IMG/VR virus record: IMGVR_UViG_3300005282_000001
Location: 12,576 to 76,575 of that record
Reading direction: 5' to 3' (one strand)
Source: a virus
Taxonomy: Duplodnaviria > Caudoviricetes
DNA: 64,000 nucleotides
Part shown: positions 3 through 52,352 of the stretch, one piece after another
Position numbering within the stretch: position 1 is the first letter of the stretch
How the letters are laid out: every line of letters begins with the position of its first letter
Notes under the pieces: model-generated
Seen by the model: the letters and a program-made list of their open reading frames with translations, nothing else
The model's database searches: none
What the model was told of the DNA's origin: nothing
Position numbers and translations under genes: made by a program

Positions 3-3000
3 CTCCACTGCCATACCGACCAGAGCCTCCTAGACGGGTACGAAACGATCCAAGAGCTCGTAGGGCGTGCAAAGGAACTTGGGTATCCAGCAGTAGGCTT
101 ATCGGACCATGGGACAATGCGAGGGGTTGTCAAGTTTTACAAGGAGTGCCAAGCAGCCGGAGTGAAACCTATTGTTGGTTGCGAGTTTTACTTTTGCCCC
201 GATGTGACAATCAAGAGTAAGAACTATCACTTACTTTTGTTCGCTATGGATAACACAGGATACATGAACTTGAAACTGCTGGATTCCTTTGCATATCGTG
301 AGGAGAACTTCCACAATCGCCCAAGGATTGACGAGGATATCCTGCGGGAACATAGCGAAGGCATTGTATGCCTAACAGCTTGTATGGCGTCTATTGTGAA
401 TACTGAAGTTGGTGAAGAGTGGCTGCTGAAATTTAAGGATATCTTTGGCGACCGCCTATTCGCTGAGATTCAACCGTTGAACCTTGAGAAACAGCAGGTA
501 TACAATGGTAAAGTCGTGGAACTCGCAAGGAAACATGGGGTTCCATTAGTAGTTACCACAGATGCTCATTACGCTCGCAAGGAAGATGAAAAGTATCACC
601 AGGCGTGGACTATGATTCATGGGTTCCGCTATGATGACTATGAGAATTACTTATGGAGCGAAGAGGAAATCAGAAGTACCTCATGGATTCCTAAAGACAC
701 CATAGAGGAAGCAATAGGAAATACGCAACGAATCGCTGATATGTGTAATGTTACCATAGAAGTTGAAGGGAATCACTTTCCTAAGTATCCTGTAGAGAAT
801 GCGGTGGAAAAAGTTAAGGAAATCTGTAGAGAAAACTTTAGAGAACTAGTGCCACAAGGGAAATACAAGGAATATGGTGAGAGGTTCCATGATGAACTTA
901 GGGTACTCGAAAAGTTAGACTACTTGAATTACATGTTAATCGTATGGGACCTTATGGAATGGTGCAAGAACAATAGTATACCCACTGGTTATGGCAGAGG
1001 AAGTGCCAGTGGTTCACTTGTTGGATATCTTATGAGATTACACAAGATTGACCCTATAAAGTACGGAGTTGAGTTCTTTAGATTTGCTAATGAGTTCAGA
1101 AAAACCACGGCCGACATAGATTCAGATGTTTCCCGTAGACATCGCGGGGAAATTATAGAGTACGTTAAGAAACGCTATGGAACAGTTACCAAGGTTCAAA
1201 CTTTAGGGTATACTAAAAATCCCGAGAAGAATGATGTAGGTAAAGCAGCGGTACTTAAGGCTGTTCAGAGTCTTGGTGAGTTTGAGAAGGAATCCACAGG
1301 AGAAAAAGAAGCATTCATATGGACTCGTAAGAAAGCTATGGTAATTACAAAGAATCTACAAGAATCTCTTGAGGAAATCCTTACGATCCCATCAGAGTTT
1401 ACGCAAGAGCAACGTGAGGAACTGCTAGATATCGCAACACATTTCTTAGGGCGTGTGGTTATGACAGGTTGCCATGCAAGTGCTGTAGTTGTTACTCCAG
1501 ATGCCATAGAAAACTATTGTCCTGTTGAGGGAGCAAAAGTTCGTGATGCATCTACTGGAGAAACAACTTATACTTCTATGGCTGGCTATGAATACCACAC
1601 AGTTGAAGAAATGGGACTTATGAAACTTGATATACTTGGGTTGAATACTTTGGATATCATTGATGATGCCGTAAAGTACATTAAGGAGTTCCAAGGGATT
1701 GATGTGGATATTGACAAGATTATATTTGATGATCCAAAGGTGTTCGCAGAGTACGCAGCGGGAGAAACTACAGGGTTCTTCCAGATGGAATCATCAGGTA
1801 TGCGTAAGTTAGCTAAGGATATGAATGTATCAAGCTTTAAGGATACTTCTGCACTCGTGGCGTTGTTCCGTCCAGGCCCACTTGGTTCTGGTATGGCTCA
1901 ACAGTATGTCGATGGTAAAAATGGGGTAGAAATAAAGTATCCCAATGAAGCTATGAAGAAACACACGGAAGAAACATTTGGGGTTCTTGTGTATCAAGAG
2001 CAGATCATGAAGGTTGCTATGGATATGTGCGGATGGGACTTAGGGCAAGCAGATACTCTTAGGAAAATCATAGGACGCAAGGAAGTCACTAAGATAAATG
2101 AGATAACAGAACAATTCATTGTGGATTCTGTGAAGAATGGCGAAGATGAATCAGTTGCAAAAAAAGTAGCGGAACAAATAAAATCTGCTGGTAACTATGT
2201 TTTTAATAGATGTTTAAGCGGCAGAGAAACTATAAAACGCCAGACAATGAATGGTAGGTTCATGTCAATTGGTGAAATTTATAAAACTATGTATGATAAG
2301 CAGTGGGCTAAAGAGAATGGACATGCTGACTTACATTCCAAATACAAGAGGAACGGTTATGGCGGCGGATTATCAATGATTGATGGGAAGATACTTCCGA
2401 ATAAAATAGTTGACATAAGGTACACAGGAGAAATGGAAGTATACTTAGTGACTACAGAAACTGGTAAGAAACTAAGATGCACTATGAATCATAAGATACC
2501 AACGCCAAATGGTATAAAACAACTGTCAGAAATATCAGTTGGAGAACTTTTGTATGTCGATGGTGGCTATGATGCTTCTAAGAATAACTATAATTTGTAT
2601 TCTGAGTTAATGCCAGTGAACGCCGAAGTTGGACATGCCGGATTCACAAATAGACCAAATGGTAACTCAGTTAAGTTTGCAGACGCTAGATATTTTATGA
2701 AGAACATGATGGCTCCATGTGAACGCTGCGGTAAAATCTCTGGTTACAAAGCTGGATTTGAGTTACATCATATTGACAAGGATCGCGAGAATAATTCCAA
2801 TGAAAACCTCATGTGGTTATGCAATGGTTGTCACAAGAAGGAACATTACGCAAACGGTAGAACCAAAAGAGGCGAAAAGGGGCATTTGCTAGCAACAGAA
2901 TCAATAGTATCTATAGAGTACGAATGTACTGAAGATTGCTATGATGTTGAAATGGAAGCTCCTAATCACAACTTTGTTACAGGCGGAGGAATTATAGTAT

Positions 3001-3851: not shown

Positions 3852-4525
3852 AATTTAAGGTTGGCGATGGAATTCGTATGGTAGAAAAGTACTGCGCAGC
3901 AGACAAAGGGATGATTGGAGAGATTAGAGGTGAATATGATGGATACAATGAGTATTGTGTATTCTTTCCACAGATGCTTAAGAAAAGCTATGGACACGAT
4001 TGCGATGGAGTGACTCCCGAGGGCGGCGGATACTACATTCCAGAGGATTGCATGGAGTTACTAGAGGAAACGCAAGAACAACCTTTAATACCAGTTGTTT
4101 CACTAGTGTCCCAGTTATCCCCTATTATACGCTTTGAATCACAGCAGCAACTTGAGGAATCACTTGCGGAATGGCAGAGCAGACTGTTGTTATCTGACTG
4201 GCTTATCATGGTAAAACTAGTTAATCCAGAGGAACTTGAGAAAGATGGAAAACTTATGGCTGGATTCAACAATTCTGAAGAAGTTCTTATGTCATCTGAG
4301 ATATCAATTGCGGACGGCGAGTTTCCCAATAGTGTAACCAAGGCGTGTGCAGAGGAAACTTTGATACATGAGTTGTTACATTTGAAATTACCAATGTTTA
4401 TCGTTGATGGATCTATTGAATCCTGCATGTATAATGATGGAGTTCATGCGACCATTGAGCAGCTCGCAAAGAGTCTATTGATGGCTAAGTATAACTTAAG
4501 TCTCTCATGGTTCAAAAACTTTTAA
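3848..4525 (+). CDS. Hypothetical protein: N-terminal module shared with 5337 ORF plus C-terminal HEXXH metallopeptidase-like domain
   Basis: EETLIHELLHL motif; first ~72 aa clearly similar to the N-terminus of 5337..6425. Confidence 0.7.
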   Translation: MKFKVGDGIRMVEKYCAADKGMIGEIRGEYDGYNEYCVFFPQMLKKSYGHDCDGVTPEGGGYYIPEDCMELLEETQEQPLIPVVSLVSQLSPIIRFESQQQLEESLAEWQSRLLLSDWLIMVKLVNPEELEKDGKLMAGFNNSEEVLMSSEISIADGEFPNSVTKACAEETLIHELLHLKLPMFIVDGSIESCMYNDGVHATIEQLAKSLLMAKYNLSLSWFKNF

Positions 4526-4533
4526 GAAATCGC

Positions 4534-4563
4534 TTGACAGTCGCAAGAAACCTGTGGTACACT
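4534..4563 (+). promoter_or_regulatory. Sigma-A-type promoter upstream of SSB
   Basis: TTGACA (4534-4539), 18-nt spacer, TG-extended TACACT (4558-4563). Confidence 0.75.
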
Positions 4564-4668
4564 AAGGAAGTCGAAAGGATGTGTTGTGGATGTCACGAGC
4601 GAGTCCGTGAGTGTTCATAGGATAAACTAAAGAAAACTAAAAAATACAAAAGATGGAGTGATGTATAC

Positions 4669-5241
4669 ATGGCAAATATCAAAGGTGTAGCAAAATGGCC
4701 AAAACTTGGAATTCCTAAGGACAACTATGATGAGTACAACAACAATGGCAAGAAAAACTATACAGTAGACTTGTATGTTACTGACGATGAACTTACGAAA
4801 TTCGAGAGTCAGTACCAAGCAGCATACGATACTATTGAAACGAATCCTAAGTATCAAAAGAATGGCAATCCACAAGAGTATCCTAAAGAAATGCTGTACA
4901 CACCTACAAGAGTTGATAAGGACGGTAAGAAGTTCATTAAATTCACCACTAAAGCATTCACAGACGATGGCGAACAGAAAACATTTCCATTGTTCGACTC
5001 TAAACTCGTGCCACTTGATAAACAAATGGCTAACGGGAGTGTCGTACAGGTAAACTATTCGCTCGCTGGTGTCCGTAACAATGTTAAAAATGCTGGGGTA
5101 TGCGCATATATGAACGCGATTTGCGTAGACAAACTTGTGGAATTCGGTAGCAAAGGTACACCAGATTCCTTTGGATTCGATGTGGAAGCCCCAGCGGATT
5201 CCTATGGATTCAGTGGTACTGAAGAAGAGAACCCAATCTGA
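4669..5241 (+). CDS. ssb: Single-stranded DNA-binding protein, T7 gp2.5-like
   Basis: AKWPKL, YTVDLYV, NGSVVQV...GVCAYMNAICV pattern, acidic C-terminal tail; replication context. Confidence 0.75.
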   Translation: MANIKGVAKWPKLGIPKDNYDEYNNNGKKNYTVDLYVTDDELTKFESQYQAAYDTIETNPKYQKNGNPQEYPKEMLYTPTRVDKDGKKFIKFTTKAFTDDGEQKTFPLFDSKLVPLDKQMANGSVVQVNYSLAGVRNNVKNAGVCAYMNAICVDKLVEFGSKGTPDSFGFDVEAPADSYGFSGTEEENPI

Positions 5242-5336
5242 TACATGGGAGTACATTTGTATTCCCATTGGGTGACAAAAGAAAACAAGCGGTTACGCAA
5301 GACGTAACGGACGACTGAAAGGAGTAGGGTAAACAA

Positions 5337-7452: not shown

Positions 7453-8365
7453 TAAACTAAAGAAATTCAAAAGTGAACGTGTGGGGTTCAAGGTAGAAAC
7501 TGAGGAAATCGCTAAGGGGTTGGCTGAGGTATTTCAGATGGAGGGATTATTATCATCCATCGGTCTTTCTCCAGTCGAACTAATGAATGTTGCGTGGGAA
7601 GAATACAGTAATGATGACCTATGGGTAGCTGCTAATTATCCTGGAGATACTGTGGAATTGTCTTATGGTACCTGTAAAAAATCTGGAAAGTATCTCGACA
7701 GTATCCTATCTGTTACTTCTCAAGAACTCCAGCGATATCTTAAGATTCGCAAGGGAATCCAAGAGAATCCAGAAGTATACTTCCCAACGCCCACAAAAGA
7801 AATTTATGATGAGCTAATGAATACGCTGGATAGCCTGGGGTGCCTGTGGATGTGCGGAGAAAAACCTATGGAGTACAATGGGTTCACTAGTGATCATAAG
7901 ATTTGCGTAAGGTACTCAACAGATATCATGATAGATGGTTATGATGCTGGCAAAGACAATATCATCAGTCTTACCTCAGAACCCCCTACGCCATCCCAAA
8001 CGATTACAATTGTATCTGATGGATATCACAAGGTAACAGCAGAATCCAATGGAATTACCGCAGAAGCTACATGCTGCCCAACAGATACGTTTAGTATCAC
8101 TAAGGGAACTCATATGGCATTGCAGAGATTACTTGAGAAACAGAAGAAAGCTGAAGAGAAGCCTAAGTTTAACAGAGGGGATATTGTAGAGGTAATCGTT
8201 GGGGGATTAGATGGGACTCCTAGTGCTACCACAGGGTTACAGGGGAAAGTTATGCAGACATCTATATTTCCAGAAGTGTTGTTCCCGATTACCATTGGAG
8301 CTAGAAACTTCTGGGCTTTCCGTCAAGATGTTCTCAAGCTTATCCGTAGAAAACCATGCAAGTAA
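7439..8365 (+). CDS. Modular hypothetical protein (modules B-B-C-D)
   Basis: GGAGGTG RBS before ATG 7439 (MTFADK); blocks similar to 5337 ORF. Confidence 0.7.
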   Translation: MTFADKLKKFKSERVGFKVETEEIAKGLAEVFQMEGLLSSIGLSPVELMNVAWEEYSNDDLWVAANYPGDTVELSYGTCKKSGKYLDSILSVTSQELQRYLKIRKGIQENPEVYFPTPTKEIYDELMNTLDSLGCLWMCGEKPMEYNGFTSDHKICVRYSTDIMIDGYDAGKDNIISLTSEPPTPSQTITIVSDGYHKVTAESNGITAEATCCPTDTFSITKGTHMALQRLLEKQKKAEEKPKFNRGDIVEVIVGGLDGTPSATTGLQGKVMQTSIFPEVLFPITIGARNFWAFRQDVLKLIRRKPCK

Positions 8366-8694: not shown

Positions 8695-9560
8695 TGGAAT
8701 TTGAAAAGTATATGCATGTGGAACGCTTAGGGAAAGAAGATGTCGAAGGGATTACCAGTGGAACATGTTATGTATTTCCTAAGATTGACGGGACTAATGG
8801 GCAGATTTACATGGATAACGGTGAGTTACACTTTGGATCACGCAAGAGAGAATTAAGTATTACAAGTGATAACGCTGGATTCATGAATACTCTTAAGGAT
8901 GACAGCAGATATGTAGAGTATTTTAATAAGTATCCAGAGAGACGCTTGTATGGCGAGTGGTTAGTACCACATACTATCAAAGGTTATTCCGATAATGCAT
9001 GGAGAAAATTCTATGTATTCGATGTGGAATCAGAAGGGAAACTATTGGCATACAATGAGTATGTAGAGTCACTTAAGGAACTTGAGATAGACTATGTTCC
9101 TGTGCAGGTCATCCTAGAAAACCCTACAGATGAACAATTGAAAAAGCAAATGGAATCTAATGAGTTCCTTATGGACACTGGAATTGGCGAAGGAATTGTT
9201 GTGAAAAATTATGAATTCCATAACAAGTATGGGAATCAAGTATGGGGCAAAATGATTTCTGCTGAATTTAAGGTTAAACATAAGTTACCAAGCAATTCTG
9301 AGGTAGTACCTATTGAATTTACATTTGTTGAACAGCTGTGTACTGAAGCGTTTGTTCAAAAGGAATTCGCTAAGGTTTGCATTGATGAACCATGGGAACA
9401 GAAGAAAATCCCTATGTTAATTTCTAAGGTATTTCATGAGTTAATCAATGAGGAACTATGGGATTTCTTAAAGAAGCATAAGAATCCAACGATTAACTTT
9501 AGAGTTCTGCAAGGTGCTGTGGTCGATAAGATTAAACTTAGTTTACCACAAGTATTCTAA
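8691..9560 (+). CDS. RNA ligase (Rnl2-like nucleotidyltransferase)
   Basis: Motif I KIDGTN, III LYGEW, IIIa FYVFDV, IV EGIVVK, V GKMIS. Confidence 0.8.
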   Translation: MMEFEKYMHVERLGKEDVEGITSGTCYVFPKIDGTNGQIYMDNGELHFGSRKRELSITSDNAGFMNTLKDDSRYVEYFNKYPERRLYGEWLVPHTIKGYSDNAWRKFYVFDVESEGKLLAYNEYVESLKELEIDYVPVQVILENPTDEQLKKQMESNEFLMDTGIGEGIVVKNYEFHNKYGNQVWGKMISAEFKVKHKLPSNSEVVPIEFTFVEQLCTEAFVQKEFAKVCIDEPWEQKKIPMLISKVFHELINEELWDFLKKHKNPTINFRVLQGAVVDKIKLSLPQVF

Positions 9561-11986: not shown

Positions 11987-12651
11987 TGGAAGAACAGGAT
12001 ATAACTGGTCAGAGATTTGGTAGATGGCTGGTAATCAAAAATGATATTTCTAAAAGACTGTATTGGATTTGTAGGTGTGATTGTGGAACTGTAAAGTCAG
12101 TATATGGAGGAAATCTAAGATTAGGTAAGACAAATTCATGTGGGTGTTTATTCAAAGAAATTAACAGTATGGTCCATAAAACTCATGGGAAACGGCACGA
12201 TCCTATATATAGCGTATGGGCTGGTATTCTTAGAAGATGTAGAAATAAAAACGATAGTCATTATAGTTTCTATGGAGGAAGAGGAATAAAAGTATGCGAT
12301 AGATGGAATGACTTTATCAACTTCTATGAAGATATGAATAATGGATACAAGAAAGGTTTGCAAATAGATAGGATAAATACAAATGGCGATTATACACCAT
12401 GTAATTGCAGATGGGTAACCCCTAAGCAAAACTCGCAAAATAGGAATAGTAATGTTTTTATTACAATGAATGGTAAAAGAATGGTCCAAATAGAATGGGC
12501 TCGACATTTAAAAGAACACCAGTCAACAATTAGTTTATTCTGTAAAAAACACAGAGAAGATAGTGACATTTTAATAGAAGGGGGCTCATTTGATAATACA
12601 GACACACATAAAGAGCTAATAAAAGAAATAGCGAGGGTTACAAATGGTTGA
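11986..12651 (+). CDS. Free-standing HNH homing endonuclease
   Basis: WICRCDCG...SCGC, YGGRGIKVC, QIDRINTNGDYTPCNCRW; same family as 6876 and 54685. Confidence 0.9.
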   Translation: MEEQDITGQRFGRWLVIKNDISKRLYWICRCDCGTVKSVYGGNLRLGKTNSCGCLFKEINSMVHKTHGKRHDPIYSVWAGILRRCRNKNDSHYSFYGGRGIKVCDRWNDFINFYEDMNNGYKKGLQIDRINTNGDYTPCNCRWVTPKQNSQNRNSNVFITMNGKRMVQIEWARHLKEHQSTISLFCKKHREDSDILIEGGSFDNTDTHKELIKEIARVTNG

Positions 12652-15124: not shown

Positions 15125-15828
15125 ATTCCCCTAGACTTTGTTCAGTATGTGGCGATAAATTCTCTTGCTCTTTTAAAGGTATCGATTACTGTAATAAGCA
15201 TTACTTAAGAATGTATTTTAAAGGAACAACAGAGTTAAACCAATATAAAACAAAGAATTCTTATGACATAGATGGTGACGTAGCGTACGGTAAAACAACT
15301 AAGGGAATACCATTTATAATTGACATTGAAGATCTTGAACGATGTAAAGAGCACACATGGTGTAGGGACCCTAGGGGATATTTTGTAGCTAATATAAATA
15401 AAAAGGTAGTAACTATTCATAGGTATATACTTAAAATAGATACATGCGGATTTTCTAATGTGCACGTAGACCATATCAACGGAGACCGTAGTGACAATAG
15501 AAGAGTTAATTTAAGAAAATGCTCTCCTGTTGAAAACTCAAGAAACATTAGGGTAAAGTCAAATAATACATCTGGTTATCCTGGTGTAAAAATTACACCA
15601 AACGGAAGGTTTGTAGCTAAAATAATGGTTAATCGCAAGGAAGTACATGTAGGGACATATAACACTATAGAAGAAGCTATAGATGCTAGAGTATTAGCTG
15701 AAAAAGAGTATTTCGGTGAGTTTTCTCCAACGGTCAGTAGAAATAGAAAATATAACGCTAGTATCCATAAGGAATACTCAGATAACCCAAGAATTGAAAT
15801 GGAGGTACATGAGGTTGACCTCTTATGA
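15112..15828 (+). CDS. HNH-AP2 homing endonuclease whose C-terminus is fused to a second copy of the rusA 3' end
   Basis: VDHINGDRSDNRRVNLR; AP2 NTSGYPGV...GTYNTIEEAIDAR..AE; ends HKEYSDNPRIEMEVHEV. Confidence 0.9.
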   Translation: METVNSPRLCSVCGDKFSCSFKGIDYCNKHYLRMYFKGTTELNQYKTKNSYDIDGDVAYGKTTKGIPFIIDIEDLERCKEHTWCRDPRGYFVANINKKVVTIHRYILKIDTCGFSNVHVDHINGDRSDNRRVNLRKCSPVENSRNIRVKSNNTSGYPGVKITPNGRFVAKIMVNRKEVHVGTYNTIEEAIDARVLAEKEYFGEFSPTVSRNRKYNASIHKEYSDNPRIEMEVHEVDLL

Positions 15829-16354: not shown

Positions 16355-19300
16355 AATCGGGAGGGAACGTATTGGAATCTAATACAAACTTAGGTGGCAA
16401 ATGGTATGACAAGGAAATTGGCAAGGGTATCTTTAGTAAGAAGTACATGCATGAGGATGACAAGGGAGTCGCGGATGTATTCAAAAGGGTTGCTAAGACA
16501 TCCCAAGTAGAAGCAATGGAAGAGCATATGGAGCGTGGGGATATCCTACCAGCAGGACGCTCGATATACGGTGCGGAATCCAAGGGGAAGTTTAAGGTAA
16601 CTTTGTCAAACTGTTACATTCTTAGGAGTCCTACTGACACCATTGAGGATATATATGACACCAATAAGGAAATGGCTAGGGTATTCTCATATGGAGGAGG
16701 ATGCGGAATCTCCATCAGTAACCTGCGACCTAAGGGGGCTAAGGTTAACAACAGTGCCAAGACATCATCAGGAGCCGTAAGTTTCCTTGAGTTATTCAAC
16801 AGTACAGGTGATGTCATCGGGCAGAATGGTAGACGTGCAGCAATCATGGTAATGCTTGATTGTTCTCATCCGGATCTCTATGAGTTCCTCAAGATTAAAC
16901 AGACGAATCACAAGTTGGAATCCATGAATATTTCCATTAAATTTACAGATGAGTTCATGGTTGCTGTTAGGGATAACACAGAGTATACCTTACGATTTGA
17001 TGTAGAGTCCACAGGGGAACATATAGAACGAACTATTGATGCTCGTAAGTTCTTTGAGGAGTTCTGTGAGACGAACTGGGATTTTGGAGACCCTGGAGCT
17101 TGTTATATAACCCCTGTGAGAGACTATAACTTGCTAAGTAGATATCCGGAGTACCAAATAGACTGTAGTAACCCATGCGTAACTGGTGATACTATTGTAA
17201 TGACAAGAAATGGTTATGAACCAATAGTAAAACTAATTGATAAACCTTGTGACATTTGGAATGGATATGAGTGGAGCACTGTTATCCCTAAGGTAACTGG
17301 TCGCAATCAAAAAATGCTGAAGGTATCGCTGTCAAATGGGATGTCATTGGATTGCACAAGATATCATAAGTTTATTCTTAAGGATGACAGCAGGGTAAAA
17401 GCAGAAGAACTAACTGTTGGCGATAAGTTGTCCAAGTGGGATTACCCAGTAATCACCGGTGATAATAGTAGCTTGTATGAGGGTAAAGTAAATCCCTACA
17501 TGAACGGATTTTATAGCGGCGACGGAACAAAAAATAGAAGCGAAATAGTGGTTTACGCTGACAAGAGAAAACTAATAGATAAACTTGAACCATTAAGAGT
17601 TCTACCGTATGATGGGTTTTCTAAAGTTATTCTATCGGAAGTGCCGATTGGAAAATCATTCGTACCTACTGTTTCTGAATCCATCTCTTTTAGATTGAAA
17701 TGGCTAGCTGGGCTTATCGACTCAGACGGATGTAAAAATGATGAGACTGGCAGCATAGCTATATCAAGTATAGATAGAGAATTTATTGGAAATGTTCAGC
17801 TAATGTTGTCTACAATGGGTTGCCATTCATCTATAGCAAAAATGAGAGCTGCTGGAAAAAAACTTCTGCCTAAGAATGATGGATCTGGTGAATACGGAGA
17901 ATACTATTGTCAAGATTGCTATAGGATAGTTATAAGTTGCTTTTATGTTAAGAAATTATTAGACATTGGTTTAGAATTGTTTAGAGTAGAGGTTAATCCT
18001 CATCCAAACAGAGACGCTGGCAGATTTGTTTATGTAACAAAAATAGAGAAGATTGAAGATGAATCAATTGTCTATTGTTTTGACGAACCAATCAATCACT
18101 CAGGTATATTTAATGGAATTATGACAGCACAGTGCTCAGAATTTTTTGGAAATGCTGGCAACAGCTGTAACTTGACAAGTATCAACTTGTACAACATTGT
18201 ATCACATCCGTTTACTAAGGAAGCTAAAGTAGACTATGGGAAACTTAAACAACTCGTAACAACTTCAGTTGTAGCTCTTAACAATATCTTAGATTACGGA
18301 TATGAACTACAGCCACTTGAGATTAACCGTGAGTGTATCAAGGATTGGCGTTCAATTGGCTTGGGAGTTATGGGTATCTCAGATATGTATGTGGCTCTTG
18401 GGTTGCGCTACGGTTCAGAAGAAGCTAATGGGTTGACAGAGGATGTATTCCATGTTATACTCAAGGAGTCGATAAGAGCTTCTGCAATGCTCGCGAGTAA
18501 ACATGGGACATTCGGGAAGTACAACTGGAAGAAAACTAAAGAGTCTCCAATGATGAAACTACTGGAAGGAACTGAAGAATACCGACTGGTACAGAAGTAT
18601 GGCTTACGTAACGGTACATTGCTTTCCATTGCACCAACAGGCTCCATTGCAACAGCCATTGGAGTATCAACAGGCATCGAGCCATTCTTTAGAGTATCTT
18701 ATGAACGTACAACACATTCCATGGAGGGTGAAGGGAAAACTTTTGTGGTCCACTCGAAATCTGTAGAAGACCTATTGAGATTCCATGGATTGCCACAAGA
18801 TATGCCAGTGGAATCCATTAAGGAACGCTTCCCGTTTGTTGTGGATACTGATGATATCGCACCATCGGACCGTGTGAGGACTCAATCGGTAATCCAACAG
18901 TACGTTGACAATGCCATCAGTTCTACAGTGAACCTTAAGGAATCTGCGACACCTCAAGATATCTTTGAGATTTACATGGCAGCATGGAAGGGTAAACTCA
19001 AGGGTATTACAGTGTTTCGCGATGGATGTGCCAGAGGTAATATCTTGGGAGTCAAGAAGGATAAACCGAAGTTACGCCGCAGAGATATCCATAAGATTAA
19101 CGGTAGCACATTCAAGAAGAGTTCCTCATGTGCTCAATCGATGTACGTAACAGTCAACAGCATTGACCAAGGGACTCCATTTGAAATCTTCACAAACTCC
19201 TCTGGTGGTTGTGCAAGTAACATTGGTACCATAACGAGACTTACGTCACTTGCGTTACGCCATGGGGTATCAGCAGAGTCAGTCATAAGGGAACTCAAGG

Positions 19301-33794: not shown

Positions 33795-34220
33795 TCACCT
33801 CCTTCTGAATCCTATTTTGAACCCATGTCCCCAGAAGTCTCTATGGGACACAAAAGAACTTGAGGGATACTCCGATGTATCCCATTGTTCTCCATTTGGA
33901 AATGTCATGAGAACCTTACCATACTCTAGGTATATCCCGCAGTGCCCTTCGCCATTCAAGTGAAAGTACACTACGTCACCATAGGTGAGATTATGAACAT
34001 CCTTAACTTTTCTCATGTTCCTCATAAACCATTTGACCATCCTTAGGGGTTCCTTCTTGTACCAGTCATGTTCAAATGATCCATCGTATATCTCGGGTTT
34101 CCATTTGTTATCACTGTAGAATAACCTTACGAGTCCAATGCAATCTGCACCGTTCTTTGTGTGACCAGCGAACTCATAAGGTATCCCAATGTAATCACTT
34201 AGAGCTAAAGTCGTATCCAT
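33795..34220 (-). CDS. NlpC/P60 tail assembly protein (lambda K-like)
   Basis: YIGIPY, GADCIGLV, GDVVYF, HCGIYL. Confidence 0.85.
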   Translation of the reverse strand: MDTTLALSDYIGIPYEFAGHTKNGADCIGLVRLFYSDNKWKPEIYDGSFEHDWYKKEPLRMVKWFMRNMRKVKDVHNLTYGDVVYFHLNGEGHCGIYLEYGKVLMTFPNGEQWDTSEYPSSSFVSHRDFWGHGFKIGFRRR

Positions 34221-37200
34221 GTGCTGTCATCCTTTGTATCTGAGAATATAGAGAGTCATCAGTCTGCTGGTTATTCAATATAACTGCTTGTGGACTCTGC
34301 TGTTGTCCCTGTGTATTACCCATGTTCCCTAGCATCGTGAAGAGTATCTTGTTCTGTGCCCCTAGGAGCCCGTTAGTTTCCTTCATGGATAAGGTAGACT
34401 GCTGAGCTACCGATGTAGCCTGTTGAGCAATATTCTTGTTACTAAAGTTCGCCGTTAGCTCTCCCGATGTTACCCCAAGTTTACCAGCGGCGTAGTTCAA
34501 TAGGTTCCTTGAGTTACCTAAGTTTTTCTCGACAGGAATGATAACTTCCTTGCCATCCTCACCAGCGATACTTGGGGAATCTACAACACCACCATTGGCA
34601 TGGAAGAGTCCCGATAAGGAACCTAGGATTCCACTCCAGTTTGTCCCACTAGATTTCTGCTGGGTTACAGGGGTTGTGCTCTTGTTATTATTCGCAAGGA
34701 CATCAAGTAAATTCTTAGAGGTAAAATCGAAACCTGAGGAGCTCTTGGATTTATCTAAGTTTCCTAGCTTGCCTACAGCTGTCCCTAAGAGGTCTATACC
34801 AGTACTCACTAGAGTTGTATTGGAACTCTTTTTGCTACCCTGTAAGCCTCCTATAGCTTGTGCTAGGATACCTGGTGAATCATTCTTGACACCCATGAGA
34901 GCCTTGAGAGCATCATTAGCTAATTGTTTCCACAAGTTACCCCAGATATCTTGGATTTTCTTACCCTGCAAAAGTAACTCATTAGTTACATCATATACCC
35001 CTTGTTTCATCTTGGTACTGTAGGTGTCTGCAAGTTCCTTAGCGTTCTTAGTAGCTTCTTGGAGTTCCAAGTTATACTTTTTGAACTCTTCAGTTTGACT
35101 AGCGAATGACGATGCTTTTGTCATGTCATCCAATAGTTGCTTGAGAGCCTTAACTTTCTCTTGTGCGGCTTCAAGGTTTGTCGTAGATATCAATTGAGCG
35201 TTGTAAGGGCTTGTAGTGTTCCCTTGGACACCATATTGTGACATCTTTTGGTTATACTCAACTTCACTCATGCGTTGCTTGTAGCGAGCCTCAGGAGTTG
35301 CAAATGTATTCATCTGCTGTACCTGCTGTTGTAACTCAAGGTTCTTCACGCGCTCCTCTGACATCGTAGGGTCCGTGAAGACATCCACACCTTTACTCTT
35401 GGCATACGCTAGGGCTGCATTAGATGCCGCAAGCTTCTGCTGAGTTAACTGCTGAGCGTTTACAGCTTTGTCAGAGTCTGTTGCGTAATACCCAAGGGAT
35501 GCAAGAGATGTTCTGCTGGATAACTCAGCACGTTTCACTTGGTAACTTTCGATATCTTGGATACCTTTAATGAGCGTCTCATATTCCTTCTTGCGTTCCT
35601 CAGTAATTTGCTTTTGATACTCAGCAATTTTCTTCTGTTCCCCAGCGACTTGCTCGAGATACCCAATGAGCAACTGAGAATCCTTAATTTGTTCCTTATT
35701 GGCACTTATGAATTGCTTCTTGGATTCTGCTGACATCTTAGCCCATGCATCAGTAGATACACCAGCAGAATCAAGCACTTCTTGCGGGATACTTACGGAT
35801 ATCTGCTGTGTTGACATATCAGGTTGGCTATTGTATTCCTCCATAACCTTTCTGACATAGTCTTGAGTTTCAGCGTAAGGAGGAATCCCGCCGTACTTCT
35901 TTACAGCTCCACCACCTGCGTTATACCCAGCAACTGCTTTCTCAATGTCTCCGTTAAAGTCCTGTAGCAACTGAGCGATATAACTTACGCCACCCTCGAT
36001 ATTACCAGATAGATCATATGGATTAACCCCAAGTCCTTTAGCTGTATCTGGCATCAGTTGCATAACACCAATAGCACCTGCGCTGCTTACAGCTTCTTGG
36101 TTCTTACCAGACTCAACCTGCGCAATCGCTTGGGCTAACTTAGGGTCTACACCGTATTTTGCTGCCATATCATTTATAATCTGCTCAGTTTCTGTACTAG
36201 CAGATGGACCTGACATACTGATGGTTGCTCCAGTGCTACTTGCGAACTCATTAACTTTCTGTAGGTCACTCGTAAGTTGGTCGTTAAGAGCTGCTGTGGT
36301 AGTCTGTAGTTCAGTCACGCGTTTATTCATAGTGTCTGTGGTATCATTAAGGAACGCATATGATTTACCATAGCGATCCGTAGCCGCTGTAATGGAATCC
36401 AAACGAGCCTTGTAGTTATTCTGAGCGATTGCCGCTTGGTCTTCTATGGATTTCACATTGTAATTGTCAAGTTTCTTTTGTATTTCATCTGATTTATCCT
36501 GAGGAGCATTCTTGGGACCTTGGTTCTTCGGAGGCTTATTTTCAGCTATCTTGAGTCCACTAGGAACCTCTGAGAGCTTAAGTGATTGTCCTTTCAAATC
36601 TATGAGTTGCTTATCGAGTTCTGATTTCTTGTCTTGTAAATCTGCGGTTTCACCAGCGATATCCTTTTGGTAAGCCTCCTGTTGTGACTTAAGGCTCGCT
36701 TGTTCTTGCTCAAGTTGTCCCTGTAGTATTTCTCTACGGCGGCTAAGGATATCTGTGCTACCACCTTCGGACATCTGTTGGTCAATCTCATTGATTTGCT
36801 TCTGAAGGTCACTCACACCAGACTCAGCGTTTCCTATTTTCCACTCAGAATATTCCATTTGAATAGCTTTCCACCATCCAAGGTATTTCGCTTTGAGTTC
36901 AATAGAATTCTTGAAGTTATCCGCATCTTTCCAATAGTTCTCAATAGAAGTTGCAATAACATCTCTTTCAGATTCCAGTTCAGTTATCCTAGCGTCTACC
37001 ATTTGTTGCAACGCTTTTTTCTTAGCAGCAACTCCATCTTCAAATGCTTGTTTTTCTGTGTTATACGCATCAATTGACCAATTGGCATCCTTAATACGTT
37101 CTACAGCATCTTCCCCAAGAATTCTTGTGAGTTGCTTTTCAGTTTCCTGTTGATTCTCTACAGCTTTATTGTATTTTTCAGTTCCCTCAGCAGATCCACT

Positions 37201-39900
37201 AATTTGCTCTTGTAATTTCTGATGAGCACCCATGAGAGCATCTGTAAATTCCGATTGCTTCTCAAGTTGCTGCTGTTGTTGCTGAGCTACCGCTATAGCA
37301 TCTGTAGCTTGTCTATTGGCTTCCCTTTGAGCATTCGCATGAGAACCAATAGCTTCCGTAGCAATAATCGTAACAGCCGCTAGAGCAGTTAATGTAGCTC
37401 CTAGTGGAGTTGCACGGGATGCCAAAGAAGCAATATTGGTAGCTGTGATGGCGTTCTTGAGTACTATGAATCCCTTTGCAGCAATAGCAAGCCCACCAGC
37501 GGCTTCTACAGACCACGCTGGTATTTCCTTGAGTCCTGTTACGAAATTGTCGACACCACTTATGGTATCCTTTAGGACACCTGTGATACCTGCATTACCT
37601 CCAGCAACACTCAAGGACAACATATCAGTCTTAAGAGTTTGCAAGCGGCGACTGATGGTATCCAGTTGCATCCCCACCTGTTTATCTGTGAAACCTATGG
37701 AGTTCACTGCTTCTCCCCACGTTCTGATGAATTCCTTATAGTCACCCAAGGTTGCCCCAGCTTTAGACCACTGGAGCTTACCTCCTGCGAGTTGCTTATA
37801 GGTTTCCTCAAGTGATTGATTAGTCCCTTGCGTGGCTACTGCTAAATCCAACATTACATCTTGAGCCTTACGGAATTGTTTGGAGCCATCCTCGCCAATT
37901 TTGTAGACGGATACCCCAAGTTTGTCAAGTTCCGCAATGGCTTTATCGCTATGGAATGAACCATAGAGTGTTTTGAGCATATTCATATTGTTACTCCTCA
38001 TGTTTCCATGAGTGGCACAGTCATTTCTGCTGTACTCTTGCGCTTCTCTTAAGTTATACGCAAGATCGGACTGTATATTTATCCCGTAGGGATAAGGGGT
38101 TTCAGTCTCTCGGAGGTACTATAGTTTCCCATAGTATTTCTCACGGTCTTGCCCACTGCTGGCTTTTAACCGTTATCGTCCCTAGTTTCATAACACATTG
38201 CTGTGCTAAGCGGCAAGTTTAAGTCTACCGATTTCTGCCCCCGAGCGGCCTGTAGCACGTACACCAGTAGCCACCTGAGCACTTAAGAACTCAAAGTCTG
38301 TACCAGTCTGATGCGCTGCGGACCCTGCTCGTTCAACACCTTGTGATAAATCTTGTGCTGATGCACCACCGTTATGCGCTAGTTTTGTCCACACGTCTAT
38401 GATAGTTCCCGAGTATGCTAATGCTTCCGTTACGTTTTTCGCAGTCATTCCAAACTGGAACATTGCGGATTCTGCGGCTTTGTTCGCATCGACCATACTA
38501 AAGTTATCCGCAACAGCTAACTTAGCGGATTGTGCAGTTAGTGCATTGACAATATTGATATCCTTGTAAGTTCTCAAAATTGTTACTCTCATATTTCTAT
38601 GGGAGGTACAGTCATTTCTGCTGTACTCTACCGCTTAACTAGAGGGAACATACGGTAGTTCGGACTGTATATTCTTCCCATAAGGAAGGACCTATGTCAG
38701 TCTCTCGGGGTTCTATAGGATACTATAGATTTCCCACGGTCTTGGCGATCCCCATCGCTTTTAACCGTTATAAAGGTCTTTTTATGCCACAAGTTTCCAT
38801 GTGGAGGGGCAGTTTTGTTTACCCCATAACTTACCAGATTCAATAATGTTATCAATAGATTCTCCGTACTGCGCAGATATCGTTAAGAATTTCTGTGATT
38901 CCGCATTGAGCATGTTCTGCTGTTCCGCCTGTTCACTTATACCTTTACTTGCGGCATTTGCAGCGGTATTCGTATGGTCCATCACCTGGTTCACGCCAGC
39001 CATTGCAGTATCCATTCTCTTGAGGTCATCGAAGACTTTCACAGGTAAAGCAAAAGCTGCACCAAGTAATCCACCTGCTACTATCCATGAAGCATGTGAA
39101 GCCACGCGAGCTCTCATGTTATCCCATGCACTTGTATAGGTCCCTATAGATTTACTAAAGGACTCTTGTTCAGCCTTAGCAACTGACATACCCTTAGTGT
39201 ACTTATCGAGTGCTGTGGCGTACTCTGTAGAACCAATAGCACCTCTTTGGAATGCTCTATATTGTTCCTCAATATTACTCGACAGTGTACTCATTTGTTT
39301 CGCATAAGTTGCTTGAGAACCAACTGTACCAATAGAGCTTGCTATAGCTTGCTTGGCAGCTTGAGATTCTTGTTCCTTAGCTAACTTCTGTCTTACTGTA
39401 GATTCAAAGTCTAGTACCTTCTGTCTCGCAAGCATCTCTTGCTCAGCATTAGTATTTATCCGAGAAACTTGAGAAGTGTTCATCTGTGCTTCTCTAGAAG
39501 CTGCTTGCGTCATCGCACGCTCTCTACCGGAAGCCATTTGTTCTATGAGTTTCTGCTGGTCCGCAAGTTCCTTCGCTTGTGTTGCTGATGTCTGACTAGA
39601 CATTTTCTGACGTATCTTTAGTTCTTCGTTAAGTGCTTTCTCACGGGTTCCGTAGTCACCTTGAGATATTTCAGTATTCATCTTGCGGATTTGCAACTGA
39701 ATATCATTGACTAGACGCTTGAGATCATCAGCACTCTTTATGTCACCCTGGAACATTCCACGTTGGTCTGTAGAACGCCTAGCCTGTTCATATGCTGTCT
39801 TAGTTTCGCTCAGCAGTTGCTTAAGAGATTGTACTTGAACTTTCGCTTCGTCTATCCCTTGGACAACTATTCGGTTTACTATTTGAGATTCTTCAGCCAT
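34195..39900 (-). CDS. Tape measure protein with lytic transglycosylase domain; three exons: 39900-38821, 38574-38227, 37983-34195 (1738 aa spliced)
   Basis: Splicing gives in-frame SGKLWG|RTYKD and SGAEIG|NMLKTL (360+116+1262 codons); SLT motifs VESG, GAIGVMQLMP, AGYNAG; follows tail chaperone. Confidence 0.92.
37984..38226 (-). ncRNA. Group I self-splicing intron 2 in tape measure gene (243 nt, no ORF)
   Basis: P1 cggU/Gccg with U-G at the 5' splice site, P3 aggg/ccct, P4 acggt/accgt, P7 gactg/cagtc, P8 ttatccc/gggataa, terminal G. Confidence 0.9.
38575..38820 (-). ncRNA. Group I self-splicing intron 1 in tape measure gene (246 nt, no ORF)
   Basis: P1 ggggU/Gcccc, P3 gacct/aggtc, P4 acggt/accgt, P7 gactg/cagtc, terminal G. 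Confidence 0.9.
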
Positions 39901-51364: not shown

Positions 51365-52352
51365 CTTCCTTAGTATTCAACAGATATCTGCTTTGATGTT
51401 GCTGTATTCTCCAGTACCTTTTATCAGAATACGTAGGTTGTTTTTTGAACCATGTGGGCATAAAAGATGTCCTTTTGCTTTGGTTGCAAATTTTGCAGGT
51501 TGGAACAATATTGAACACGGCATCGCACAGGTCAGGGTGTTCACGACTCATAACAGACTGAGGTATTATATGTTCAGCCATAAGAGTTTCATGCGACTCT
51601 CCACAGTAAGCACACTTGTGGTCAAATTCCTCAAGCGTTCTATTCCACTCAACCGAATTACCAAAGCAACCATTAAGCGACACAGGATATCCATCTGTGC
51701 TCCTTGTCATCGTATGTGTTTCAAAGCCAACCACAAGTTCCTGCACGTGTTCCAATGATAAATTAACAACAATCCAGTCTCTCACAGGTATTCTTATGGA
51801 ATTAGCATAAGGAACCTTAACTCCACACCATTTGCCTATGTCATCATAAAAAGTTCTCACACGGTCAATTCCTGTGGCTTGCTTATAACGTGTCAACAGG
51901 TTTTCCATAGTATATCTAGGTGCCACAAATGGTCTTAAGATGCCAGCGGCAGACAATTGTTCTTCAAGGCGAATAACTCTTTTGAGCACCTCTGGTTGAC
52001 TATCACTACTTGACGATTCGATAATGTCCCACACAAAATCCATAAGCTGATTAGCTTTTCTTTGACGACTCCATCTGCATATCTCAAGTACACCTCTCAA
52101 AGAATAAACAACTGTTTCTCTCGTTATTTCTCTGGTTCCCTCAACTGTGGTTACTTTAGTCACAGTTGAAAGTCCGTCAAGTCTATCGCTATGCGCCCTG
52201 TGTATCTTCTCGATTGCCCTGTTAGGATCAGCATACTCTAATGAGTCACCTATTTGCTTGCGTGATATAAATTTGTCACCGCTATTATCGGAATATATTT
52301 CACACAAGTTACCATTGAAAGAAGATACCTTTGAAATAACTAAGTTATTCAA
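51348..52352 (-). CDS. Bro-N domain + C-terminal HNH endonuclease
   Basis: ISRKQIGDSLEYADP...ANQLMDFVWDII; CAYCG...EHIIP...NIVPTCKICNQSK. Confidence 0.8.
   Translation of the reverse strand: MNNLVISKVSSFNGNLCEIYSDNSGDKFISRKQIGDSLEYADPNRAIEKIHRAHSDRLDGLSTVTKVTTVEGTREITRETVVYSLRGVLEICRWSRQRKANQLMDFVWDIIESSSSDSQPEVLKRVIRLEEQLSAAGILRPFVAPRYTMENLLTRYKQATGIDRVRTFYDDIGKWCGVKVPYANSIRIPVRDWIVVNLSLEHVQELVVGFETHTMTRSTDGYPVSLNGCFGNSVEWNRTLEEFDHKCAYCGESHETLMAEHIIPQSVMSREHPDLCDAVFNIVPTCKICNQSKRTSFMPTWFKKQPTYSDKRYWRIQQHQSRYLLNTKEGVISG

Follow-up and report, generated by a model that had tools for sequence, protein, structure and literature searches.

Two sister inserts in the tape measure gene of a metagenome-derived tailed phage are probable self-splicing group I introns of a compact tRNA-type lineage

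How is one tape measure protein (TMP) obtained from a gene that appears as three open reading frames (ORFs)? The question is raised by a stretch of 64,000 nucleotides, here called the window, that covers positions 12,576 to 76,575 of IMG/VR record IMGVR_UViG_3300005282_000001, a metagenome-derived Caudoviricetes contig. On its minus strand gene finding calls the ORFs 38782..39900, 38206..38592 and 34195..38001. The first-pass annotation of this DNA proposed that they belong to one TMP gene, interrupted by a pair of related group I introns without ORFs, and that the reading frame is restored once both are removed. Our analysis bears this out on four lines of evidence: the structure of the inserts, their covariation, a covariance model built independently of them, and homologs that lack the introns. 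Both inserts are very probably self-splicing group I introns of the TMP gene and sister copies of a compact tRNA-type lineage.

Removal of 38575-38820 (intron 1) and 37984-38226 (intron 2) in silico gives a single frame of 1,738 codons with no internal stop, as had been predicted, with the junctions ...IESGKLWG/RTYKDINI... and ...GRSGAEIG/NMLKTLYG... (a slash marks the join). Read on in the exon frame, each insert runs into stop codons. The exon between them measures 348 nt, in agreement with the distance first given, and its Pfam PhageMin_Tail match covers only profile positions 38-135 of 201; the match is partial at both edges, indicating that the domain is split on both sides by the inserts. 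Exon 3 matches Pfam SLT (E=1e-23) and the PHROG tape measure and lytic tail protein families, and the genes downstream of the TMP gene encode minor tail and tail assembly proteins. The SLT domain occupies exon 3 residues 603-700 (window approx. 36200-35900) and is 55% identical to its counterpart in the TMP of Alicyclobacillus phage KKP_3916.

Alignment to intron-less TMP homologs, a check proposed at first pass, showed that eight uninterrupted homologs, from KKP_3916 and from IMG/VR loci L160-L166, continue through both joins. The KKP_3916 TMP (2,609 aa) aligns gap-free over both (LWS RQYKD and IIG NMYK), and the seven IMG/VR genes, at 40-55% identity, are continuous at both, with conserved WG/R.Y and with EIG followed by N or T. 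At the DNA level, blastn with the 1.4-kb region as query returned no match among 50,697 phage records.

Gene callers see three ORFs because in-frame start codons close both introns. A TTG or ATG stands in frame at the 3' end of each intron, with another in-frame ATG 18 nt upstream (38575-38592 and 37984-38001), and in both the terminal start codon is preceded, at a distance of 7 nt, by a purine-rich stretch (GAGAG or GAGGAG). The downstream exons could be translated from unspliced RNA.

The two inserts resemble each other closely (84% column identity), and the core motifs listed at first pass are common to both. Neither wholly contains an ORF of at least 40 aa with a start codon, the longest stop-free stretches being 59 and 78 aa, and they are the only two copies in the 76.6-kb virus record, which CheckV rates 100% complete. 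Direct reading of both sequences gave the helices P1 to P9 collected in Table 1. It also agreed with the first description of the boundaries: a GGT codon precedes each insert, the exon U-1 stands opposite a guide G in P1, forming a U.G wobble at the splice site, and the last letter of each insert is G (38575 in intron 1, 37984 in intron 2). P3 and P7 cross, forming the group I pseudoknot in both introns, and both carry P9.1 and P9.2 as well as a UAACAA...G tail with omega G as its last letter. The P7 pair across the bulge is presumably the guanosine-binding site, as in group I introns generally. The spacer from the 5' strand of P7 to P3' is 4 nt (ACAU) in intron 1 and 3 nt (AAA) in intron 2. 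The changes between the two introns in P3, P5, P6, P8 and P9 preserve pairing in both copies and are compensatory, as the first-pass annotation had said. Unconstrained minimum-free-energy (MFE) folds recover P1, P2, P4-P6a, P7 around P8, P9, P9.1 and P9.2 in both introns, with folding z-scores of -3.9 (intron 1) and -5.0 (intron 2).

Table 1. Parts of the tape measure gene, its two introns and their helices, with positions in the window (a slash separates exon from intron, or the two strands of a helix).
Feature	Position	Strand	Details
TMP exon 1	38821..39900	minus	open frame, 360 codons, end ...LWG, last codon GGT
Intron 1	38575..38820	minus	246 nt, compact group I intron, ORF-less; R2 70.5 bits
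TMP exon 2	38227..38574	minus	348 nt, 116 codons, RTYKD...AEIG
Intron 2	37984..38226	minus	243 nt, compact group I intron, ORF-less, sister to intron 1; R2 59.3 bits
TMP exon 3	34195..37983	minus	1,262 codons + stop; SLT lytic transglycosylase domain
Intron 1 internal guide sequence	38806..38811	minus	UGCCCC; direct reading, MFE fold; pairs with exon GGGGU + first intron A
Intron 2 internal guide sequence	38211..38216	minus	UUGCCG; pairs with exon CGGU + intron AG
Intron 1 P7	38662..38704	minus	GAGACUG/CAGUCC, bulged A; encloses P3' and P8; presumed guanosine-binding helix
Empty potential site 3	37780..37782	minus	GGT/AAG of ...LAGG/KLQ...; homologous to intron site of locus L031
P1			intron 1 GGGGU/A with UGCCCC, U.G at splice site; intron 2 CGGU/AG with UUGCCG
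P2			intron 1 CCACAUG/CUUGUGG, GAAA loop; intron 2 UAGCACA/UGUGUUA, GCAA loop
P3			intron 1 GACCU/AGGUC; intron 2 AGGG/CCCU
P4			ACGGUU/GACCGU in both introns
P5			intron 1 GCGAU/AUCGC; intron 2 GCCA/UGGGC (one bulged G)
P6			intron 1 GGG/CCC + P6a; intron 2 GAG/CUC + P6a
P7			GAGACUG/CAGUCC, bulged A, in both introns
P8			intron 1 CUUCC/GGAAG; intron 2 UAUCCC/GGGAUA
P9			intron 1 CUACCG/CGGUAG; intron 2 UCUUGCG/CGCAAGA

Relatives of the two introns were gathered by core-motif scans of IMG/VR and of bacterial genome contigs, which yielded 17 IMG/VR loci (L005-L021) and 85 of 120 bacterial-genome hits, together 95 non-redundant members. Pairs were counted in 38 members aligned with MAFFT alone, without fitting to any structure. 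Of the cells, 93.4% were paired; shuffling lowered this to 71.0% and sliding the partners to 24-41%. In 34 of the 46 pairs both sides vary, and none of 500 shuffles attained any observed measure. The P7 extension across the bulge is an AU pair in 30 members, a GC pair in 8 and unpaired in none. P9.1 occurs only in the long-form members, where it is paired in five of five, with four different stems and an invariant CAGAAAUGA loop. In the family as a whole the guide co-varies with the exon end (GCC with GGU, GGC with GCU, GUCCG with CGGAU).

The tRNA anticodon loop is the classical place of bacterial group I introns, and it is here that 76 of the 81 non-redundant bacterial relatives reside, mostly in tRNA-Thr(GGU) and directly after the anticodon (position 36/37). 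RNAalifold, given the tRNA-embedded members alone, finds P2, P4, P5, P6, P7, P8 and P9. Rfam and default ARAGORN miss these relatives; the His and Arg calls that ARAGORN makes for some are probably mis-placed splice sites. The bacterial relatives (hits within L023-L140) come mostly from metagenome-assembled genomes (MAGs) of Patescibacteria, the Candidate Phyla Radiation (CPR), and those in anticodon loops are ORF-less and measure about 158-221 nt. At one locus, L079, the 3' splice site could not be placed from the reading frame.

The first-pass annotation had named the absence of any group I model match as a refuting result, and with the Rfam model RF00028 (Intron_gpI) this is formally what was obtained: no match was found at gathering score or at E<=10 in the window, in the region or in related loci, and the model calls no member of the family. 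Control searches with RF00028 gave about 100 bits for T4 introns, 64-101 bits for Twort introns and 59 bits for JCL1032, and only 25.6 and 22.5 bits, at a cut-off of 50, for the verified introns of SPO1 and LL-H. Since these verified introns also fall below the cut-off and none of the 12 RF00028 seed sequences is bacterial (Williams 2020, bioRxiv 10.1101/2020.01.27.920355), we treat the silence on the window introns as a sensitivity gap.

Two other covariance models were used, R1, built from the family, and R2, built from 42 tRNA-embedded introns with the RNAalifold structure; the training set of R2 contained no window sequence and no phage sequence. R2, a model of tRNA-type introns, matches both inserts over its full length (model positions 1-190), with E=7e-23 for intron 1 and E=6e-19 for intron 2 (scores in Table 1), and each match begins at the exon GGU. 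The best R1 matches in Twort, T4 and JCL1032 all coincide with introns that RF00028 calls; the best one outside the family, at Twort 16980-17218, reaches 29.4 bits (E=5e-5).

An element of another kind, such as a miniature inverted-repeat transposable element, a translational bypass element or a different ribozyme, might merely resemble a group I intron, and would account for the lack of a match to any curated Rfam family. We consider this very improbable, as such an element would have to mimic the full ordered series from P1 to P9 with P3/P7 crossing, bulged P7, U.G at position -1 and terminal G. It would also have to explain why its bacterial relatives lie in tRNA anticodon loops, why the family model also matches verified introns, and why a sibling intron (see below) holds a homing endonuclease gene in P6.

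A second possibility is that the inserts are decayed remnants that no longer splice, TMP function being provided by three separately translated polypeptides. The three called ORFs fit this possibility, as do the start codons at or near both intron 3' ends with their purine-rich stretches, and the runs that cover the window introns are probably DNA. However, the family core is preserved in both copies, R2 gives them 59-70 bits although neither was used to build it, and the differences between them are compensatory. Separate translation would leave the PhageMin_Tail domain in three pieces, whereas all eight uninterrupted homologs are single chains. Furthermore, the TAACA...UG tail is found family-wide, even in copies, those in tRNA genes among them, for which restarting translation is irrelevant. 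Decay is therefore unlikely, and self-splicing introns remain the preferred reading.

The virus record is a metagenome-derived contig, and so a misassembly or chimera has to be weighed as well. Independent contigs from three runs cover each insert including both exon junctions; these contigs come from freshwater and wastewater runs and show 90-98% identity. This coverage leaves an artefact of assembly next to no probability; moreover, misassembly could not give sister introns at two places, both with a guide that fits the local exon. Other contigs are intron-less and between them show empty versions of both sites. In one, 37983 is joined to 38228; another has a loose end at an empty site, ...CATGTT followed by ACCGATTTC...; and a third skips from 38568 to 38858 with 43 intervening letters, which correspond to 6 + 37 nt of diverged exon flank. 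No run contains more than 0.24 of the sampled words, and the runs labelled RNA-Seq were flagged as probably DNA and used as contigs only, so that the joined forms are not evidence of splicing.

Several observations weigh against self-splicing introns. The joined forms in the contigs may be intron-less DNA alleles rather than spliced RNA. P1 of intron 2 has only three exon-side pairs, the wobble and two intron-side pairs, and P10 as read directly is weak in either intron (<= about 2 bp). RF00028 is silent, and R1 scores textbook introns only modestly, at 29 bits for the best. Against these points stand the anatomy, the covariation and the R2 matches described above, from which we infer catalysis and splicing in vivo.

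Under this reading the introns would be transcribed within the late tail-gene mRNA, and each would fold into a compact ribozyme with P1-P2, a P4-P6 domain, a P3-P8-P7 domain with the pseudoknot, P9, P9.1 and P9.2. An external guanosine bound in P7 would attack after the terminal U of the exon, held in the U.G wobble by the guide sequence; the terminal G of the intron would then take the place of the guanosine, and the exons would be ligated. Only the doubly spliced mRNA would encode the 1,738-aa TMP with an intact PhageMin_Tail domain. The guide sequences of the two sister introns appear to be adapted to two GGU-ending sites 348 nt apart.

Comparison with related TMP genes shows that the introns and their sites vary. 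In the closest TMP relative (L159, 75% identity) site 2 is empty, and a sibling intron of 1,008 nt (L159:1481-2488) sits 9 nt upstream of window site 1 (...DSG/KLWARTYKDI). This sibling has the same P9.1 loop and tail as the window introns, and its P6 loop holds an ORF (1604-2377) for a homing endonuclease of 257 aa with GIY-YIG and NUMOD3 domains. A prophage in a Phascolarctobacterium MAG (L031) carries a long-form intron in its TMP gene at ...MSGG/KYQ, a site that is homologous to an empty one in the window (Table 1), and the contig of a wastewater relative has an element like intron 1 within the window-equivalent 37770-37799. Among related TMPs, four sites within about 190 codons are in use, DSG/K, LWG/R, EIG/N and AGG/K, all after GGT.

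Neither window intron carries an endonuclease ORF in a peripheral loop, and a search of the genome of this phage found no GIY-YIG domain and nothing homologous to the L159 enzyme. It does contain three matches to HNH or HNH_3 domains (window 2718-2846, 15457-15543 and 51471-51614), one of them inside an open frame of 1,294 aa; nothing was found that ties these three ORFs to the intron sites. The first-pass suggestions of spread in trans by a free-standing endonuclease and of splicing as a meter of TMP output thus gain no support from the analysis. Collaborative homing by free-standing endonucleases has been documented in two phage systems, and reverse splicing has been proposed, without direct experimental evidence (PMC3984707). 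For the route of spread we offer a tentative suggestion, which we hold to be possible rather than likely: a single compact lineage might move among very different hosts and genes, CPR tRNA-Thr(GGU), phage capsid and tape measure genes, its GCC guide targeting any exposed ...GGU. If true, such targeting would be the signature expected of transposition of the reverse-splicing type, and no endonuclease with a long recognition site would be needed for the lineage to spread.

Other loci of the collection also hold interrupted genes. A structural gene, putatively capsid-like, at L007:7371-9405 (the same as L006) has three family introns at 7464-7653, 7930-8131 and 8753-8936 (R2 122-145 bits), and its frames rejoin cleanly by hand. 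At about 9180-9395 it holds a fourth, different group-I-like element that ends in ...GAGTAACAAAATG. The IMG/VR contig of L016 has three consecutive R1 matches in 4523-5317 (163, 31 and 22 bits), which looks like another multiply interrupted gene. In a Yanofskybacteria MAG (L055) two neighbouring genes have one intron each; the intron at L055:4707-4931 is of a different kind, recognised by Rfam (61.9 bits), and the family intron follows about 120 nt downstream.

At this locus standard annotation pipelines would report three ORFs and overlook the full-length TMP. The Rfam group I model misses this intron family altogether, whether it sits in a phage, a prophage or a CPR tRNA gene; a family-specific model such as R2 retrieves its members cleanly. 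Related genomes provide a natural set of variants at the locus: some sites are empty, some hold introns without ORFs, one sibling placed 9 nt away bears an endonuclease gene, and an alternative site is occupied in some relatives. This set could be used for studying the spread of ORF-less group I introns in phage structural genes.

To which subgroup do the window introns belong, and what do they share with known systems? In the 1990 scheme of Michel and Westhof, IA2 introns, the class typical of phages (T4 td and Twort among them), are reportedly defined by the extra helices P7.1/P7.2 between P7 and P3'. An assignment to IA2 was considered and dropped, since the window introns leave no room for P7.1/P7.2, go undetected by RF00028 and strongly match tRNA-type introns. 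On their sequence features we regard them as presumably compact tRNA-type (IC3-like). Bacteria have many tRNA introns, of which the classical ones are of class IC3 (Williams 2020, bioRxiv 10.1101/2020.01.27.920355). The introns of CPR tRNA-Thr(GGU) belong, by covariance model (R2), to the same RNA family as the window introns. Both have a GCC guide with GGU, a GNRA L2 loop, the P3-P9 core and a TAA...G tail, and all are ORF-less and about 190-250 nt long. They differ in that the CPR introns sit in tRNA genes whereas the window introns interrupt a protein-coding phage gene and have P6a, P9.1 and P9.2 added.

The first-pass annotation had also considered group I introns to be rare in such late genes. 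This view needs correction, as TMP introns are known from Lactobacillus phage JCL1032 and from prophages of the B. cereus group, where they occupy three TMP sites (Tourasse & Kolsto 2008, PMC2504315). According to the same study, TMP-IVS1 and TMP-IVS2 are 80% identical, with a conserved P3-P7 core, divergent P1, P2, P8 and P9 and a P1 guide adapted to the site; an endonuclease gene is absent from most phage introns of the group, and one TMP gene has two introns in the prophages E33L and KBAB4. IVS1 and IVS2 were described as IA2 and IVS3 as IA1, resembling the introns of Twort, SPbeta and T4 (PMC2504315). The B. cereus IVS1/IVS2 pair is thus like the window pair in comprising two related, mostly ORF-less introns at different sites of one TMP gene. 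By their published description, IA2 and IA1, the B. cereus introns are set apart from the window introns, which are invisible to RF00028 and of compact tRNA type.

JCL1032 likewise has a group I intron in a siphovirus TMP gene (ORF17), annotated as a two-piece join. Unlike the window pair, it is a single intron recognised by Rfam (RF00028 59 bits, 12055-12349), and its R1 match is weak (E about 0.1). In Twort, orf142 shows three ORF-less group I introns in one structural late gene of a phage, and the Twort intron that gives the best outside R1 match has a 3' tail, ...GGAGUAAC..., in common with the window introns; RF00028 scores 64-101 bits there and nothing in the window. Together, these comparisons show that a TMP gene with two related introns lacking ORFs is a pattern already published, to which the window adds a further case. 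What goes beyond the literature consulted is their membership in a compact tRNA-type family missed by Rfam, the alternative sites anchored on GGU and the sibling intron that bears an endonuclease.

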